Below, piece after piece: positions 1 through 46,914 of a stretch of 46,914 nt of DNA. The stretch comes from Patescibacteria group bacterium (lineage in GTDB: Bacteria; Patescibacteriota; Patescibacteriia; WFTA01; S139-112), in NCBI GenBank assembly GCA_015485715.1, contig WFTA01000039.1, forward strand, positions 1 to 46,914. Reading direction: 5' to 3'. The position numbers and the translations under genes were made by a program. Each line of letters starts with the position of its first letter. The first letter of the stretch is position 1. A model generated the notes under the pieces. The model did no database searches. It saw only the letters and a program-made list of their open reading frames with translations, and had not been told where the DNA came from.

Positions 1-85
1 CATTATTGCAGATATGTTGCTTTAAATCAAATTATATACCCATTGGCTTTATAGCAAGATTTACCTCAAAAAGTGAAGCTGGGCA
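1..85 (-). repeat. TIR-element copy A (cut by the window edge; reverse orientation relative to copy C)
   Basis: Aligns along its length with the copies at 6127-6229, 36809-36917 and 46669-46775. Ends in a degenerate TIR, TCAAAAAGTGAAGCTGGGCA. Confidence 0.75.
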
Positions 86-130
86 AGTTGACCAATATAC
101 AGTGTCAAAGCCAAAACTATCATTATTGTT

Positions 131-250
131 ATTTTGGATTTGGGACTTGGGATTTTATTTGACATTTGGATTTTGGCATTTGGAATTCTTAGGTTTAGGA
201 TTTAGGATTTTTATGTGAAATTCAGAATTCTTGTGAAATTTGATTGGAAC
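131..250. repeat. Degenerate short tandem repeats (TTGGATTT / TTAGGATTT / GTGAAATT units)
   Basis: Visible reiteration: ttggatttgggacttgggatttt...ttggattttggcatttggaatt...ttaggtttaggatttaggattt...gtgaaattcagaattcttgtgaaatt. The ORF-track entry 6..218 lies inside this region and is judged spurious. Confidence 0.6.
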
Positions 251-2466: not shown

Positions 2467-3639
2467 TTAGCTTCCTTTCTTCTTATCCAACCTTTCTATA
2501 ATCTTTACTTTTTCCAGTCTGGAAATCCTGCTTTTGGATATATATTTCTTAAATGTTTGAATGGTGTAATCATAGGTTTTTCTATCTACAAAATAAGGAG
2601 ATCCGTCTTTACCGCCATGTGCAAATGAATACCTTGCCGGATCCTCATAGGAAGGCTTTGCGCCATAGATAACTTCTGCAACCAGAGACAGTGCCCGCAC
2701 AGTCTTGGGACCCACTCCTTGTGTGGATAAAACCTGCTTGAAGCTGTTCGGCTTCTGCAGAGTAAGATTGTATATTACTTTCTGCAAATACTTATTTGCA
2801 GAAAAATCCTCATACAAAGTATCATACTCCTTAAACTCACATCCCTTCAGATCAAGAAGTGTCAATTGAGCTGATGTATGTCTGTCTTTCATTCTGATCA
2901 TCTGAGAAAGTTTTCCTTTATGACGGGAGACAACAGCAAGATCTTTCATCAACTCTTTAAAACTCAAAGATGACAATAACTTGTAGGATACATCTCTGTT
3001 TTTTATGCTTTTGGAAGATGTCAGATCCAAAACTTTGTCTAAAACTTTTTGCGTGCTTATGCCAGAATGCGGTTCAGACAACATATCTGAAATATAACCT
3101 GAATGCCAGTGATAGCGTCTTGCAGTCTGCAAGCTGGTATTCATGCCCTGCTGAACCACAGTCCAGCTTCCTGATTTGGAAAATATAAAAGTATGATGAT
3201 ATATCTGATAGCCATCTTGCAGAAGACAGGAATCAACTTTGGCAGACATTCTTGAATTATAAACAAGGTTTTGTGAGTCTTTATCTGAAAGCCCGGCAGC
3301 AGATGCACGTTCTTCTATCTCCTCAGGCGTTTTTCTGGATGTTTTTCCTTTCCCTCCGCAGATATATACACCAAGCTCCTCTTCCCTGCCTTTGATTGCT
3401 TCTTTCAAAGCAGCTGTTAAAGTTGTAGTCAGGCCTGACGCATTCCAATCAAAAGCAAGCACAGTGCCCAATGACTGAAACCACACAGGATCGCCCATTC
3501 TTCTTACAAATTCTTCAGGCCCCTCTTCCTCTACTATAATCCTGACAATCTCCCTGCCCAAAGATACCATTCTCCTGAAAAGCCATGGCGGACACTTGCC
3601 CCAGTCAAGTGTAAATGTTGCCACTCCCTTGGAAATCAT
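2467..3639 (-). CDS. DUF763-like protein with a C-terminal helix-hairpin-helix
   Basis: 390 aa. The N-terminus (TLDWGKCPPWLFRRMVSLGREI) resembles the DUF763 family as I remember it. An HhH-like GVGPKTVRALSLVAEVIYG lies near the C-terminus. Confidence 0.5.
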   Translation of the reverse strand: MISKGVATFTLDWGKCPPWLFRRMVSLGREIVRIIVEEEGPEEFVRRMGDPVWFQSLGTVLAFDWNASGLTTTLTAALKEAIKGREEELGVYICGGKGKTSRKTPEEIEERASAAGLSDKDSQNLVYNSRMSAKVDSCLLQDGYQIYHHTFIFSKSGSWTVVQQGMNTSLQTARRYHWHSGYISDMLSEPHSGISTQKVLDKVLDLTSSKSIKNRDVSYKLLSSLSFKELMKDLAVVSRHKGKLSQMIRMKDRHTSAQLTLLDLKGCEFKEYDTLYEDFSANKYLQKVIYNLTLQKPNSFKQVLSTQGVGPKTVRALSLVAEVIYGAKPSYEDPARYSFAHGGKDGSPYFVDRKTYDYTIQTFKKYISKSRISRLEKVKIIERLDKKKGS

Positions 3640-3642
3640 AGA

Positions 3643-3957
3643 TTAATCTTGAATACTTTTTTGTGCATTGACAGAACATTCATGTATAGTTTTATAAATT
3701 TTTATCGCACACTCTGGAGAAAAACCAGATTGCTCTGCATATGAACTCCATTTATTTTCTACTTCTTGAGCTCTTTCTGGATCATAAACATTTAAATCAT
3801 GACGGCGTTTCAACTCGCCAATTTTGGAAACTAATTCAAACCTCTCTGCAAGGGATTGCAAAATTTTCTCATCAACTTTATCTATACGCTCTCTAAGTTG
3901 CTCTAATTCTTGTAATGGATCAGACTCTGCTCTATTTTTTTCTTGTTTATTTAACAT
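3643..3957 (-). CDS. Chorismate mutase, AroQ (type II) class, stand-alone
   Basis: 104 aa. LEQLRERIDKVDEKILQSLAERFELVSKIGELKRRHDLNVYDPERAQEV is the typical all-helical CM_2 pattern. Confidence 0.7.
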   Translation of the reverse strand: MLNKQEKNRAESDPLQELEQLRERIDKVDEKILQSLAERFELVSKIGELKRRHDLNVYDPERAQEVENKWSSYAEQSGFSPECAIKIYKTIHECSVNAQKSIQD

Positions 3958-3970
3958 ATAAAATATTTTA

Positions 3971-4525
3971 TTATAATCCTAAATCATCTGCAATTTCCTG
4001 CATAGCAGAAAGTTCTATATCTATAAGTTCTTCCAGAGAAAGTCCCAGATATTCTTCTGCTTTCAGGATAATATCCCTGTTTACACCTGCAGCAAATGAC
4101 GGCTGTTTGAATTTTTTTAAAACTGACTCTCTCTTCACACTTGCAAGTTTTTTATCAGGCTGAACCAAAGCGCAGGCAACTATCAGTCCTGTGAGCTCTT
4201 CAGCACTGTAAAGCGCTTTTTCCAAAAGGGTTTTGGGCTCTATACCATGCACATGGTTATGCACATATATAGCCTGCACAATTTCCGGGTCAAGGCCTGC
4301 CTCTGTCAGGTATTCTTTTGACTTTACAGTATGCAGCTCTGGCGTATCCTGTGTCTCCTCCCAGTCTATATCGTGCAAAAGACCGGCCAGGGCCCACTTT
4401 TCCTCATCTTCACCAAACTTTCTTGCCAATGCCCTCATAATAGCTTCAGCTGCAAGCATATGCTTGATAAGATTTTGATTTTTTACATGCTGATGGAGCA
4501 GATCAAGCGCTTCTTCTCTGGTCAT
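3971..4525 (-). CDS. HD-superfamily metal-dependent phosphohydrolase
   Basis: 184 aa. His...HD signature (KHMLAAEAIM ... GLLHDIDWE). Confidence 0.6.
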   Translation of the reverse strand: MTREEALDLLHQHVKNQNLIKHMLAAEAIMRALARKFGEDEEKWALAGLLHDIDWEETQDTPELHTVKSKEYLTEAGLDPEIVQAIYVHNHVHGIEPKTLLEKALYSAEELTGLIVACALVQPDKKLASVKRESVLKKFKQPSFAAGVNRDIILKAEEYLGLSLEELIDIELSAMQEIADDLGL

Positions 4526-6126: not shown

Positions 6127-6229
6127 CAGCCCCACTTTTCAAGATTATCTGCAGATATGTTGCTTTAGATTAAGTTATACACCCCTTGACTTTATAGCAA
6201 GATTTGCCTCAAAAAATGGGGCTGGGTTG
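6127..6229 (-). repeat. TIR-element copy B (left TIR shortened)
   Basis: CAGCCCCACTTTTC...TCAAAAAATGGGGCTGGGTTG. Aligns with copies A, C and D. Overlaps the last 11 codons and the stop of comF. Confidence 0.85.
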
Positions 6230-6926
6230 CCCTTGCAAATACCAATCCATAAATACGAACTGAAGGAACGGCTTTTCTAATAGTAAAAGACAGAGATTTT
6301 AAAGTAGCTCCTGTAGTTATTACATCATCTACTATGATGATATCTTTTCCTTCTAAAAGTTCGGGCACTATAACTTCAAATGCATCTTTGATATTTTCTA
6401 TTCTTTTTTCTTTAGTCAACTTTGTCTGGCTCTTGGTATACACTTTCCTTACAACAGCAATTTTCTCTACATGTCCTCCAACATAATCTGCAATTTTATC
6501 AGCCAGTAGATAACTTTGATTATAACCTCTTTCCCATTCTCTTTTCTTATGCAAAGGAACAGGCAAAAAAATAAAATTATCCCTCATCAGTACAGAAAGC
6601 AAAAGAGGGGAATTTTCTATTTTCTTCACCATAAAATCAGTAGAAACAGACGCAAGCTCAGTAAGATTATCATACTTAAGTCCATATACTATTTCCTTTA
6701 CAACTCCCTTTTCCCAACAGCAAACAAAAAGCCCGTCTATATCAGACGGGCATCCTTTATGCGGGCTTCCCACTGGTGTTTTTTGCAGACAAGAAGGACA
6801 GAAAAATTCATCTATTACTTCTACCCTACCAATGCAATCTCTACACAGCCAATCTCCCTCTCTTCTGCATCCCAAGCACTCAACAGGAAAAATCAAATCC
6901 ATCAGATAATCAAACAGTCTTTTCAT
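6192..6926 (-). CDS. comF: ComF family protein (phosphoribosyltransferase-like competence protein)
   Basis: 244 aa. N-terminal double CxxC (CLGCRREGDWLCRDC ... CPSC) and PRTase motif IIIVDDVITTGATL. The C-terminal TQPHFLRQILL* is encoded by repeat copy B. Confidence 0.8.
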   Translation of the reverse strand: MKRLFDYLMDLIFPVECLGCRREGDWLCRDCIGRVEVIDEFFCPSCLQKTPVGSPHKGCPSDIDGLFVCCWEKGVVKEIVYGLKYDNLTELASVSTDFMVKKIENSPLLLSVLMRDNFIFLPVPLHKKREWERGYNQSYLLADKIADYVGGHVEKIAVVRKVYTKSQTKLTKEKRIENIKDAFEVIVPELLEGKDIIIVDDVITTGATLKSLSFTIRKAVPSVRIYGLVFARATQPHFLRQILL

Positions 6927-9501
6927 ACACCACTTTTCCCTTTTTAAGCACTGCTCTTGCTTTATCTCCTTTTTTAATCCTGCCTTCTATAATCTCATCT
7001 GCCAAAGTAGATACTATCATATCCTGAATATTCTTTTTTACCAGTCTTGCTCCCTCCTCTGGTGAGAAACTGAGATTGGCAATTTTATCTATAACCTTTT
7101 TATCCACTGTCAACTCTATTTTATTATCACCCCTGACCTGATCTATGACTTTATCTATCTCAATCTCTGCAATTTTCCTAACTTCTCTCTTATCCAGAGG
7201 CCTAAATACAATAACTCTATCGAGCCTATTCAAAAACTCAAGCCTAAACTCCTTTTTAAGTTCAGATATTACTTCCTCTTTGATGACTGAAAATTGTTTG
7301 TCAAAATCTATTTTCTCCTCCTTGCCAAATCCAATATTTTCAGATTTAAGCTTGGAAAGGCCTACATTGGATGTCAGGATTATAATAGTATTTCTAAAGT
7401 CGGCTTCCTTGCCTTTGGAATCTGTAAGTCTTCCTTCGTCAAGTATCTGCAAAAGTATGTTGAATACTTCGGGGTGAGCTTTCTCTATTTCATCAAACAA
7501 AACTACAGAGTACGGCTGTCTCCTTATCCTGTCTGTGAGTTGCCCCCCTTCCTGATACCCCACATACCCTGCCGGTGCTCCTATCAGTCTGGATACATTG
7601 AAACTTTCTGAAAACTCTGACATATCAAAACGTACCAATGCCTTGGGATTCTGGAATACTTCCTCTGCTAAAACCTTTGCTGTCTCTGTTTTTCCCACCC
7701 CTGAAGGACCTAAAAACATAAAAGATCCCAAAGGCCTGTCGTGCTGGCTTAAACCAGTACGTGATTTTTTGATAACTTTCACAAGCTCATCTATAGCCTC
7801 ATCTTGGCCTACAATACGCAACTTCAGACGTCTGCTTAGATCTTTTAATCTGGCTGCTTCAGATGCAATCAGGTTGGTAACCGGAATACCAGTGATATCT
7901 GAAACCAAATTTGCAATATCTTTACTGGTAATTCTGCCAATGTATCCTTCTCTATTGGCTGTAGTCTGAGACAGATATCTATCTATCTCTTCTCTTAGTC
8001 TCTTTTCTTCCTCTTTTAACATTAGAGCTCTTGGAAAATTCTCCTGCTGAACTGCCTTTCTTTTCTCCTCTATAATCTCATCAAGCTTCATCTCCAATTC
8101 TTTGGCTTTTTTCTTGTGCTCAAGAGATTTTTTAGACAATTTACTTATAGATATTTTAGCTCCTGCTTCGTCTATCAAATCCACTGCCTTATCAGGTAAA
8201 AACTTATTTGATATATATCTGTCTGATAATCTTACTGCTGCCTCTATTGCATCATTTGTTATTTTTATTTTATGATGCTCTTCATAAGCAGATTTAATTC
8301 CTTTTAAAATCTGAATAGTCTCTACAACTGACGGCTCTTTGACTTCTACCACCTGCAGCCTTCTCTCAAGTGCTGAATCCGGCTCTATATGTTTTTTATA
8401 CTCATCATAAGTTGTTGCTCCTATTAATCTTATCTCGCCTCTTGCCAGAGCTGGCTTTAAAATATTGGCAGCATCCAGCGATCCCATAGCAGATCCTGCA
8501 CCCACAATGTTATGTATTTCATCTATAAAAAGTATAATATCCTCATTTTCCATTACTTCCTCTATAACCTGTTTAAGACGAGATTCAAATTCTCCTCTAT
8601 ACATAGCACCTGCAACGAGCAAAGACAAATCAAGATTGTATATTTTCTTGCCAATTAGCACTTCAGGAACATCACCTTCTACTATTTTTTTGGCAAGACC
8701 CTCTACTATGGCGGTTTTCCCTACACCCGGCTCACCTAAAAGTATAGGATTGTTTTTATCTCTTCTGGATAAGATCTGTATCATTCTCTCAATCTCTTTT
8801 TCTCTGCCGATGACCGGTGTTAGCTTCTTTTGATAATAAGGATCCGTAAGTTCAACTCCGACATAATCCAAGATAAGCTCCTGCTTACCTTTCTTGTTCT
8901 TCTTTGTCTTTGATTTTGTCTTGGGCGCAGTTGATGCAAGATCTGCCTCCTCTTCAGGAGAGTCGAATTCACCTGCAACTTCTTCAAATTTATCCACACT
9001 TTTAATAGCGGCTTCCACCTGTGCAGTCAAATTATCAAGTGCCATTTTCTTCCTTGACAGGAAATCTCTTACTACATCCTCGTTAAAAGATATTAATCCC
9101 AGAAGAAGATGCTCTGTTCCTATAAACTTATGCTTATGCTTGGCAGCAATCAAAACTGATTTTTGGATTACATCTTTTGCCTCTTCTGATAATGTTATAT
9201 CTTCTATTTCGTCAATTTTTTCCAAACTCCTTTTCAAGATATCATATTGCTCTCCATATTTCTTCTCTTTCTTGTTATTTGTGTCAGATGATACAACCTG
9301 ACCTTCTCCTTCATTTCGCCAATCATCTACGTCAGTCAGCTTCAACTTATATAAGAGTTCAAAAGCAACAGAACCCTTTACCTGCGTCAATGCCTGCATG
9401 AGGTGCTTGGGCAATACCTCTTTTTCATTTTCCTTAAAAGCAATCTCAACTGCTTTTTTAAGGACATGCTTGTATTTGTTGGTAAATTTAATTTCATTCA
9501 T
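6910..9501 (-). CDS. clpC: AAA+ Clp ATPase, ClpC-like
   Basis: Two Walker A boxes (GEPGVGKT, GPSGVGKT), Clp-N repeats, a short coiled-coil middle domain and an IGF loop (SENIGFG). The track start at 9507 is TTG, so I prefer the ATG at 9501 (MNEIKF...). Confidence 0.85.
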   Translation of the reverse strand: MNEIKFTNKYKHVLKKAVEIAFKENEKEVLPKHLMQALTQVKGSVAFELLYKLKLTDVDDWRNEGEGQVVSSDTNNKKEKKYGEQYDILKRSLEKIDEIEDITLSEEAKDVIQKSVLIAAKHKHKFIGTEHLLLGLISFNEDVVRDFLSRKKMALDNLTAQVEAAIKSVDKFEEVAGEFDSPEEEADLASTAPKTKSKTKKNKKGKQELILDYVGVELTDPYYQKKLTPVIGREKEIERMIQILSRRDKNNPILLGEPGVGKTAIVEGLAKKIVEGDVPEVLIGKKIYNLDLSLLVAGAMYRGEFESRLKQVIEEVMENEDIILFIDEIHNIVGAGSAMGSLDAANILKPALARGEIRLIGATTYDEYKKHIEPDSALERRLQVVEVKEPSVVETIQILKGIKSAYEEHHKIKITNDAIEAAVRLSDRYISNKFLPDKAVDLIDEAGAKISISKLSKKSLEHKKKAKELEMKLDEIIEEKRKAVQQENFPRALMLKEEEKRLREEIDRYLSQTTANREGYIGRITSKDIANLVSDITGIPVTNLIASEAARLKDLSRRLKLRIVGQDEAIDELVKVIKKSRTGLSQHDRPLGSFMFLGPSGVGKTETAKVLAEEVFQNPKALVRFDMSEFSESFNVSRLIGAPAGYVGYQEGGQLTDRIRRQPYSVVLFDEIEKAHPEVFNILLQILDEGRLTDSKGKEADFRNTIIILTSNVGLSKLKSENIGFGKEEKIDFDKQFSVIKEEVISELKKEFRLEFLNRLDRVIVFRPLDKREVRKIAEIEIDKVIDQVRGDNKIELTVDKKVIDKIANLSFSPEEGARLVKKNIQDMIVSTLADEIIEGRIKKGDKARAVLKKGKVVYEKTV

Positions 9502-36200: not shown

Positions 36201-36775
36201 GGGAATTCCTGTGCGGCGGCATAGTCTCATCTGTGAAAACGATTACTACCAAAAATGGAGATCAAATGGCCTTTATTCAGATAGAAGATATATCTGAAAA
36301 TATTGAAGTGATTGTTTTCCCTAAGACCTATGAAAAATATAAAAATATACTATTTGAATCAAAAATTGTCCTTATAAAGGGGAGTAAATCAGACAAAACA
36401 GATGAAAGTAAAATAATAGCAAACCAAATATATGATCTTGAAGAAATAAAGGATAAAAAAAGCAAATTGGAAGAAATATTTAACTCTAACAGATCTACAA
36501 ATACTGCAAAATCTATAAAACCAAATTCCAGTCAACCTCATAAAATAGAAAAAGTATATATAAATGTATCAAATGGCAACGGGAAAACCAAAGAAAATCT
36601 ATTAAAGTTAAAAGAGCTTCTTCAGTATTATCCCGGAAACTTACAGGTAGTCATAGTTATAAAAAACCACTCCAAAAGCAAAGTCATCCTTACTCCCCAC
36701 TATGTCAATTATACACCAGATTTAGTGAACCAGATAGAAAATATATTTGGAAAAAATTCTGTAAAAAAGGTATAA
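33239..36775 (+). CDS. dnaE: DNA polymerase III alpha subunit
   Basis: 1178 aa. PHP domain (FVHLHVHSHYSLLDG), GRGSGSGSLVAYCLEIT, PDIDVD, an HhH region and an OB fold. Confidence 0.95.
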   Translation: MSMKFVHLHVHSHYSLLDGLPKIKDLVAKAKEMDMPALALTDHGSMYGVIEFYKECLKENIKPIIGMEAYLAPRRLIYKKPQIDDKYFHLTLLAKNETGYKNLMQLSSIGFLDGFYYKPRIDMEALKKYHEGIICLSGCGRGPVRSSLQDKNIDKAKQYIKDLYDIFQDDFYIEMQIIPWKIKEKHTQQMEENKILYQLSQEFNIKPVATCDVHYIEKEDAQIQDILVCIQTGKTVDDKKRLDMRDADLSFASPQDVYERFKNFPEAVENTLEVAEKCSLKLDLKTWHYPKFQLPKGEKSPEDYLRKKVEKGARKIYGEITTEIQERIDYELHIINHKKYADYFLIISDFMQWARRRGILTTARGSGSGSLVAYCLEITSVDPLKYKLPFERFLTLERPSPPDIDVDIMDERRDEVIQYVREKYGYENVAHVCTFGTMMARGSFRDVARVLGKEYDWADRIAKMIPFGSQGFPMTLEKALEVNPELKKIYDTDPEVKKVYDMAKKVEGCVRHVSIHAAAVVITPEKLTNYVPLQFDPQGRKNSIITQYDMYKIDPGMSAESVGILKMDFLGLRNLTILARCIELVEKTKGKKIDIYNIPLNDKKTFDMLSQGHTYGVFQMSGAGMTKYIKELKPTEVFHLIAMVALYRPGPMEIIPEYIRRKNNPETVTYPDPRLKDILEMSYGLFVYQDDIIMTAIKLAGYTAGEADAFRKAMGKKIPEVMQAQKEKFFEGCIKNGLNKEQVQNIWDMIEPFAAYAFNKAHAASYGMLAYRTAYMKANFPAEYMTALMTSEANNPDKIAETIRECRKMGIDVLPPDINESYGNFTYISDKEIRFGLNAIKNLGEDVVLTILYERKKNGKFKSLEDFLKRVKSKNLNKKSLEALIKSGTLDSLGDRSTMAANIDKMLQYIKEIQKPISNQISLFGNTEEEKEIKVNMTPVEEIPLQEKMAWEKEYLGLYISEHPFEKYYNDLEDYLIKISNIHTIEEGEFLCGGIVSSVKTITTKNGDQMAFIQIEDISENIEVIVFPKTYEKYKNILFESKIVLIKGSKSDKTDESKIIANQIYDLEEIKDKKSKLEEIFNSNRSTNTAKSIKPNSSQPHKIEKVYINVSNGNGKTKENLLKLKELLQYYPGNLQVVIVIKNHSKSKVILTPHYVNYTPDLVNQIENIFGKNSVKKV

Positions 36776-36808
36776 TATAATAAAATTCAAAAGGCAAAAG
36801 GCAAAATT

Positions 36809-36917
36809 CAACCCAGCCCCACTTTTTGAGGTAAATCTGTGCTATAAAGCCATAGGGTGTATAATTTGATTTAAAGCAACATATCTGAAGGTAATGTTGA
36901 AAAGTGGGGCTGGGTTG
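36809..36917 (+). repeat. TIR-element copy C (reference copy, perfect 18-bp TIRs)
   Basis: CAACCCAGCCCCACTTTT ...core... AAAAGTGGGGCTGGGTTG, with no internal ORF. Confidence 0.9.
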
Positions 36918-36944
36918 CCCAGAACTCTACGTAATTTTGGGCAA
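36915..36944. promoter_or_regulatory. CCCAGAA/TTCTGGG-family palindrome (one mismatch)
   Basis: TTGCCCAGAA-ctctacgtaa-TTTTGGGCAA. It is the homolog of the perfect copy at 46631-46660. Confidence 0.6.
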
Positions 36945-44902: not shown

Positions 44903-45198
44903 ACATCTAAATAATACCACAAAACAAAGAATAAAACAATAAACAATTTTCAATCCCGGTCATAACGACGGGATAAATAATCAATTTTCAATTTACCAAT
45001 TTTTCAATCAATTATTTAATTATCCAATGAATTAAATCCTAAACTCTGCATCAAAATCAGTGTATATTTATAGTTTAAACCATTAAGTCATTAAATAATT
45101 GAAAATTTGAAAATCATTGTTGGTTATTGTTCAGGATTTCGGACTTTTAAATCTAAGATGATAAAAATACAGGCAAATCAGACTGCTCACCTCCCTCA

Positions 45199-46630: not shown

Positions 46631-46660
46631 TTGCCCAGAACTACGTAGAGTTCTGGGCAA
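46631..46660. promoter_or_regulatory. CCCAGAA/TTCTGGG-family palindrome (perfect 12-bp arms)
   Basis: TTGCCCAGAACT-acgtag-AGTTCTGGGCAA, 55 nt upstream of the TPR gene's ATG. Confidence 0.7.
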
Positions 46661-46668
46661 TCCAGTCC

Positions 46669-46775
46669 CACCCAGCTCCACTTTTTGAGGTAAATCTTGC
46701 TCTAAAGCCAATAGGTATATAATTTGCTTTAAAACAACATATCTGCAGATAATCTTGAAAAGTGGGGCTGGGTTG
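46669..46775 (+). repeat. TIR-element copy D
   Basis: CACCCAGCTCCACTTTTT...core...AAAAGTGGGGCTGGGTTG. The core has the same orientation as copy C, but the outer flanks are inverted relative to C. Confidence 0.9.
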
Positions 46776-46855
46776 ACTTTTGAATTTTGCCTTTTGAATT
46801 TTATTATATTATTTCCTTAATTTTGAATTTTGATTTTTGAATTTTGAATTTTTAT
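46776..46855. repeat. Short tandem TTGAATTTT-type repeats
   Basis: acttttgaattttgccttttgaatttt...ttaattttgaattttgatttttgaattttgaattttt. Confidence 0.65.
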
Positions 46856-46914
46856 TACACATACTTATATTGTAAATAATCCAGCACCACAATGCAAGCT
46901 GCAATATACCAGAA

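Follow-up and report, generated by a model that had tools for sequence, protein, structure and literature searches.

A short intergenic repeat in a Patescibacteria genome, a probable MITE-like relative of hairpin-bounded GIY-YIG elements

A sequence of about 105 nt, bounded by terminal inverted repeats, occurs four times in the window (the whole stretch of 46,914 nt that was analysed), which raises the question of what kind of element it is and how it came to be dispersed. The window is contig C39 of a bacterial MAG of 0.98 Mb with 34% G+C, 88% complete and assembled in 87 contigs; the relatives of this genome are all Patescibacteria, with genomes of ~1 Mb. An earlier note on this DNA had named a MITE, a REP/BIME-like element, a structured small-RNA gene and an invertible switch as candidate identities; the MITE turned out to come closest, and the other three found no support.

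Copies in the window and in the genome

The four copies lie where the earlier note had placed them (Table 1), A and B facing one way and C and D the other in agreement with the strand calls, and the two ends of copy C are exact reverse complements as described. The statements that the copies are intergenic or at a gene 3' end, and that target-site duplications could not be seen, also hold. Every copy is intergenic except B, which ends comF; its arm and core encode the last 11 ComF codons (TQPHFLRQILL) and the stop codon. No direct repeats were found at the copy flanks, and direct similarity between left and right flanks is at background level. The arm CCAGCYCCACTTTT (14 nt, at most one mismatch) has seven occurrences in the window, where 100 shuffles predict 0.04.

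Table 1. Positions of element copies, adjoining palindromes, flank modules and the arm-bearing 16S rRNA insert (window coordinates unless a contig is named)
Feature	Position	Strand	Remarks
Copy A	1..85	-	cut by contig end; nhmmer 7-83 = model positions 4-80
Copy B	6127..6229	-	comF 3' end; 67 nt upstream of lysS
Copy C	36809..36917	+	perfect 18-nt arms; 33 nt past dnaE stop
Copy D	46669..46775	+	91 nt upstream of TPR gene (minus strand)
Degenerate palindrome GCCCAGAACT...GGGC	36917..36942	.	adjoins copy C
Perfect palindrome GCCCAGAACTACGTAGAGTTCTGGGC	46633..46658	.	11 nt left of copy D
Module M1			AT-rich CAAATGTCAAATT type
Module M2	82..131	+	GGCAAGTTGACCAATATACAG...; in the window as GGCAAGTTGACCAATATACAGTGTCAAAGCCAAAACTATCATTATTGTTA
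Module M3			TGTAAATTGGATAATTATTTTGGGG...
Module M4			TAGATATTAAAAATTGTTTATAAAA...
Module M5	36772..36808	-	AT-rich GAATTTTGCCTTTTGAATTTT type; left of copy C
Module M5, repeated	46782..46857	+	right of copy D, inverse orientation to M5 of copy C
16S h17 insert	C9:11194-11515 (L065 1695-2020)		17-nt perfect arms, intact GIY-YIG ORF

The genome-wide copy-number search that had been proposed was carried out with iterated nhmmer and gave 44 loci in 0.98 Mb, occupying a total of 4357 of 980,733 nt. Of the 44 loci, 13 are no more than 250 nt from a contig end; the assembly is thus interrupted by the repeat, and 44 is a lower bound, the true number probably being higher; the repeat accounts for many of the contig breaks in this MAG. 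All 44 copies are outside rRNA genes, and so lack the rRNA-gene location required of an IVS. The defining feature of the element is an arm pair of 14–18 nt, CCAGCYCCACTTTT / AAAAGTGGRGCTGG, with a fuller form (C)CCAGCYCCACTTTT / AAAAGTGGRGCTGG(G). Elements are 105–109 nt long and non-coding, with arms of 18–30 nt, and conform to MITEs in size, terminal inverted repeats and copy number. The mean pairwise identity between copies is 88%.

RNAalifold supports only a terminal stem of ~18–20 bp, the core having no consistent fold. The stem is stable, with a mean MFE of about -39 kcal/mol, and its single covarying pair is at arm position 4, where C-G alternates with U-A; the arm polymorphisms (C/T, G/A) vary mostly independently of each other. 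Individual arms are not themselves palindromic. Searches of Rfam at gathering and at permissive thresholds returned only miRNA-like hairpin matches at chance level. The promoter-like pair TTGATT-N18-GATAAT that the earlier note had reported from the core is present in 22 of the 35 full copies of the genome and is absent from copy C. Where both neighbouring genes are known, 23 of 29 spacers have co-directional genes flanking the element. The element points to a gene start 22 times and to a gene end 15 times (p=0.32), i.e. without orientation bias. No T-tract was found after the stem, and there was no promoter call inside copy C. On these three grounds a promoter or terminator role was rejected.

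Arms shared with GIY-YIG elements in rRNA genes

Outside the 44 copies, arm-like inverted pairs in the present genome are confined to its rRNA genes. At the tip of 23S helix 63 (H63) the sequence is CCCAGCCCCACTTTTTTAAAGTGGAGCTGGG, in which the two arms practically adjoin each other; in relatives, among them the only genome from the same family, this site is taken by short hairpins that are unrelated. Mini hairpins of the form TCCAG...CTGGA are present at 23S H45 and at the 5'-terminal helix (H9/H10), and 16S h6 carries a palindromic expansion of 104 nt starting with CCCAGCCGCAG (L065 1232-1335). The clearest relative is found at 16S h17, where a 313-nt insertion corresponds to a 322-nt unit with the arms TCCAGCCTCACTTTTGG / CCAAAAGTGAGGCTGGA (Table 1). 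These arms differ from those of the ~105-nt element at one of 14 positions and are diverged beyond. The unit encodes a frame of 105 aa that matches the GIY-YIG domain PF01541 at 3e-19 and continues through the right arm into 16S sequence; the closest solved structure to this protein is 1ZG2, a single-domain UPF0213. The search for an autonomous partner suggested in the earlier note was thus half rewarded: an ORF-bearing element with matching arms exists, and its gene encodes a GIY-YIG nuclease, not a transposase.

Some further peculiarities of the stable-RNA genes were recorded. The 23S gene (C76:7279-11258; L031), in which the mini hairpins of H10, H45 and H63 are located, is 3980 nt long as compared to the 2925 positions of the model, and its positions 2469-2945 form a stretch of 477 nt closed by a perfect 17-nt inverted repeat, CATCTAATTTTAAGGTT. 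The arms of the element are lacking from the other small GIY-YIG ORFs of the genome, which are found within duplicated tRNA genes. Such tRNA-associated ORFs were seen at C21:17920-18670 and C72:5500-6200 and, in a sister genome, at L063:2195-2760. They sit between an intact tRNA gene and a duplicated 5' part of it (C21 and the sister) or a copy interrupted in the T-loop (C72). Separately, there are duplicated tRNA 3' ends with a double hairpin (CCCTGATATACATCAGGG CGCCCTGTCGAATGACAGGGCG) in place of the T-loop. A second, tRNA-targeting type of element seems to be involved. Downstream of the tRNA/GIY-YIG cluster of the sister, about six 32-nt units (GCTACAGCGAGACAATGTCCGCTTTCGCTAAA) are arranged head to tail (L063:2850-3050), and a GC-rich stretch related to these units occurs at C26:10640-10740 of the present genome.

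A scan for CCAGCYCCACTTTT-N60-85-AAAAGTGGRGCTGG, with one genome per species, yielded 58 gene-less hairpins of 91–109 nt in 56 loci, spanning many classes of Patescibacteria as well as a few MAGs labelled otherwise. The cores of these exact-arm hairpins are unrelated, and only L085 has the core of the present element. Eleven are within or adjacent to a 23S or 16S gene, their positions including the 5'-terminal site (H9/H10) and H45 among others; the majority are not beside detectable rRNA sequence, and none was found in viral contigs. As element DNA was not found in 60 relatives, a lineage-specific reading had been considered; it was rejected when the arms-only scan found hairpins across the phylum. 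Few genomes have the exact arm pair (2 of 401, the present one included, in an even phylum sample); the small GIY-YIG protein has homologues in many (48 of 151).

Gene-bearing forms were identified at several loci elsewhere. In genome G101 (locus L124) the exact arms, as CCCAGCCCCACTTTT / AAAAGTGGAGCTGGG, bracket a GIY-YIG element of 310 nt in 23S rRNA, and at or near this 5'-terminal 23S site L112-L114 have gene-less hairpins of ~100 nt with the same arms. To judge from the sequences, this is the relation expected of an autonomous element and its miniature derivatives. Likewise, 23S H63 is occupied by the ORF form in L081 and by the minimal hairpin in the present genome, so that gene-less and gene-bearing forms have been found at the same sites, i.e. 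H63 and (at or near) the 5' terminus of 23S. Similar arms of 19–26 nt bracket the GIY-YIG ORFs of L081 (at 23S H63), L089, L076 and L067. Of 29 homologues drawn randomly from the phylum, 11, L124 among them, have matched arms with a score of 13 or more and a span of ~280–340 nt. Full-length members have a length of ~310–325 nt, with a single stand-alone GIY-YIG gene of ~90–105 aa between the arms, and those that could be placed are in or next to rRNA genes, with the exception of L067. Short members (~100 nt) consist of the arms and an arbitrary, fast-changing core only. On the evidence of the conserved arms (C)CCAGCYCCACTTTT / AAAAGTGGRGCTGG(G) by which it is defined, the family is Patescibacteria-wide. 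The exceptional unit of L067 (CAYISE010000018.1, reverse strand, ~6650-7050) has 19-nt arms and lies at the 5' end of a protein-coding gene, of which ~35–40 nt of the start are duplicated, in diverged form, on both sides, leaving the gene intact.

Insertions in CPR rRNA genes have been described before. GIY-YIG proteins were found there to be encoded by non-intron sequences, and the other insertions are for the most part short (<200 bp) and uncharacterised (Tsurumaki et al. 2024, PMC11270868). The 16S h17 insert of the present genome and the 23S inserts of L081, L089 and L124 are of the same kind as the former, and the ~100-nt 23S hairpins of L081, L089, L112-L114 and L117 match the short class. 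The searched text of PMC11270868, in which the words 'inverted', 'hairpin' and 'intergenic' are absent, reports no conserved shared arms, no link between ORF-bearing and short insertions and no copies outside rRNA genes. Classical rRNA IVSs, i.e. those of Salmonella and Campylobacter in helices 25 and 45 and the ORF-bearing helix-45 IVS of Coxiella (PMC4990558), are also stem-loops at the tips of variable helices, and share with the present family a patchy spread, the occasional presence of a small ORF and a stem suited to RNase III. However, the known ones encode S23p-type proteins or nothing, in contrast to the GIY-YIG proteins found here, and unlike the ~105-nt element they have not been reported as dispersed intergenic families.

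Flank modules and comparison with a sister genome

The sequences that adjoin the element are themselves recurrent and were grouped into five modules, M1-M5 (Table 1). Each module adjoins some copies on the left and others on the right, where it is reverse-complemented; C and D for this reason resemble a single composite in which the core has been turned round. M2 is next to the element at 11 of its 12 genomic places, and in copy A the inner arm is joined directly to it. M1, M3 and M4 are likewise found away from the element, beside other small palindromic repeats. Complementarity between the two flanks of a copy is significant in 6 of 32 copies and is no higher than that of flanks paired across different copies; the element is therefore not regularly situated at the tip of a copy-specific hairpin, and the idea of insertion into the tip of an AT-rich hairpin already present was abandoned.

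The intergenic DNA of this genome contains other repeats. A second palindromic family of ~100 nt (CAATTATTTAATTATCCAATGAATTAAATC...) is present in the window at 45008-45102 and on at least 13 other contigs (e.g. C1:4386-4585, C20:13-270 and C9:74-320), and it fills slots in the sister genome at which the present genome has the ~105-nt element. Much of the remaining intergenic DNA consists of AT-rich motifs with a period of ~8–9 nt (TTTGGATTT, GAAAATTG, CAAATGTCAAAT), seen in the window at 120-283 and 46776-46860 and in many spacers genome-wide, which recur as modules adjoining several different repeat families.

For one sister genome (GCA_054030415.1), ~110 kb could be compared, retrieved via exact-protein look-ups. 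Flanking DNA is 88–98% identical between the two genomes. Both have the element, in the same orientation, at six loci (B, C, D, C52, C6 and the tandem pair C17/C21), with 96% identity between orthologues for copy C and 97% for copy D. Seven copies (A, C34:7356, C21:8136, C33:27723, C33:30261, C20:1807 and C20:5575) were found in the present genome only, and no sister-only copies were found in the ~110 kb. Insertion polymorphism, which the earlier note had proposed as a check of the MITE reading, is thus evident at seven of the 13 sites that could be compared. Five of these seven have a different insert in the sister, e.g. another repeat family in the slot of C33:30261 and a hairpin with the arms CAACCCCACACTATTA in that of C20:1807, and at the other two the spacer simply does not have the element; the sister is without it at C33:27723, and no insert was named in the orthologous spacer of copy A. 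At the junctions that were compared the flanking AT-rich sequence is near-identical in both genomes. None of the seven sister sites is a clean empty site, so that gain is not separable from loss or replacement at every site.

Three of the copies absent from the sister share 98% identity, which suggests a young subfamily. Orthologues of the two genomes are mostly each other's best match, i.e. there is no strong homogenisation, and concerted evolution was rejected on this basis. Elements with the same core were also found on L053, a contig of a near-identical strain, and on L085, from a more distant MAG (isolate S139_133). The exact 28-nt core pattern was found in no genome contig and in a single metagenome contig, that of the near-identical strain. 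On the L085 contig (WFTG01000034.1; 37-610 versus 2885-3978) the modules and the element are 92–97% identical to those of the present genome, and the only coding match is 66% identical. This contrast hints at horizontal spread of the repeats, at a paralogous comparison or at a chimeric contig.

Origin and spread of the element

We consider it probable that the ~105-nt repeat is a gene-less, MITE-like derivative of a hairpin-bounded GIY-YIG family that has been amplified recently in intergenic DNA. Its kinship through the arms is plain, as are the GIY-YIG copy in its own genome, the polymorphism between sisters, the absence of target-site duplications and the random orientation. The link between nuclease and element and the mechanism of copying are inferred from the sequences. 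One short subfamily would have left the rRNA genes and would have been copied into AT-rich, repeat-laden spacers between housekeeping genes, its amplification reaching at least 44 copies, some of them presumably gained after the split from the sister lineage. The arms would form a hairpin or cruciform on which the GIY-YIG nuclease acts in trans to start the copying, and repair or recombination with the repeated flank modules as homology would complete it; such a process would account for modules that accompany the element and are seen on either of its sides. When transcribed, the 18–30-bp stem is likely to be a substrate of RNase III, for which a gene is present in the genome; this would be a side effect and not the reason for which the element exists, and effects on RNA, such as altered 3' ends as in comF, would be secondary. 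In its most specific form, in which the arms are the recognition hairpin of a ~95-aa GIY-YIG nuclease and the ~310-bp unit is autonomous without target-site duplication and copies ~100-nt derivatives in trans into spacers and stable-RNA genes, we advance the proposal only tentatively.

The amplified copies could alternatively be recognition repeats of a host-domesticated nuclease that modulates DNA uptake or recombination. In other phyla the Ssn proteins, single-domain GIY-YIG ssDNA nucleases, are bracketed by dispersed NTS/SRM hairpin repeats (Chenal et al. 2025, PMC11893778; Patescibacteria are not mentioned in that paper). There the gene of a ~94-aa single-domain GIY-YIG protein is bracketed by a repeat present in tens to hundreds of dispersed copies. 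The arrangement found here is similar, with a nuclease of ~93–105 aa between hairpin arms that also occur throughout the genome, and the competence genes comF and dprA lie in the window or the sister locus. However, the published SRM motif has no match in the copies, with 15 in the whole genome, so that the ~105-nt element is not an SRM by that motif. SRMs are, moreover, self-contained hairpins of 20–50 nt, standing separately on each side of the gene, whereas the arms described here pair across 70–290 nt and across the gene itself (PMC11893778). With copies that turn over quickly between sister genomes and exact arms as rare in the phylum as found above, we regard a domesticated system of this type as unlikely.

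A conventional MITE, moved by a DDE-type transposase in a cut-and-paste or copy-paste manner, would agree with the terminal inverted repeats, the length of ~105 nt, the high copy number, the intergenic location and the insertion polymorphism, and the transposase could be missing from an 88%-complete assembly in 87 contigs; the transposase families searched for comprised one, Y1_Tnp (PF01797). We nevertheless judge this explanation very unlikely, given that target-site duplications are lacking, that the genome has no second, longer element with these arms save the GIY-YIG insert, and that shared flank modules on either side are not predicted by precise transposition. The Correia elements of Neisseria (CREE/NEMIS) are a counterpart: ~100–155 nt in length, they have long terminal inverted repeats, occur in many copies between genes and are transcribed into hairpins that are cut by RNase III, and some copies have promoter-like boxes. 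DDE-type mobilisation has reportedly been proposed for them. They differ from the ~105-nt element, which has no target-site duplication and has a GIY-YIG-bearing form with the same arms, in that they have a TA target duplication and no known ORF-bearing partner.

Selection by the host for an RNA function, as a small-RNA gene, an RNase III site, a terminator or an mRNA stabiliser, would be in line with the stable stem and its one covarying arm pair, with the presence of RNase III and with the prevalence of co-directional neighbours. Yet the covariation check supports the arm stem only, leaving the structured-sRNA candidate of the earlier note without a conserved core: nothing is conserved or covarying outside the arms, the cores are unrelated across the wider family, and the sister genome has unrelated inserts at the same slots. 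As Rfam matches, orientation bias and a T-tract after the stem are also lacking, a function of this kind seems very improbable as the reason for the element.

The candidate of a promoter switch inverted by a site-specific recombinase is favoured by cores that lie both ways between the same flank modules (e.g. C versus D and C35 versus C1) and by the promoter-like boxes in most full copies. A single pool of flank modules serving both ends is, however, explained equally well by insertion or copying in either direction. All six loci shared with the sister have kept their orientation, and there is no orientation bias towards genes, leaving such a switch with hardly any probability. Least credible is mobilisation by a RAYT (Y1 HUH) transposase as in elements of the REP/BIME or REPIN type, which the ~105-nt element resembles as a hairpin-forming doublet of ~100 nt in mosaic intergenic repeat clusters, since its arms are not individually palindromic and no RAYT gene was found in this 88%-complete assembly, the search that detected Y1_Tnp in six control genomes giving no match here.

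A single conserved arm pair ties together, within one genome, a nuclease-bearing rRNA insert, three to four minimal hairpins at rRNA helix tips and an intergenic family of 44 copies. This bears on the many short insertions in rRNA genes of Patescibacteria that have so far been unexplained. Should the arms indeed be the recognition hairpin of an autonomous ~310-bp unit, these units would be among the smallest autonomous mobile elements known, and many short CPR rRNA insertions and intergenic repeat families of this type would have a common origin. If the link to the nuclease holds, it would offer a natural enzyme-substrate pair for hairpin-specific GIY-YIG nucleases and a testable model for how genomes of ~1 Mb with almost no classical transposons acquire and shuffle repeats.
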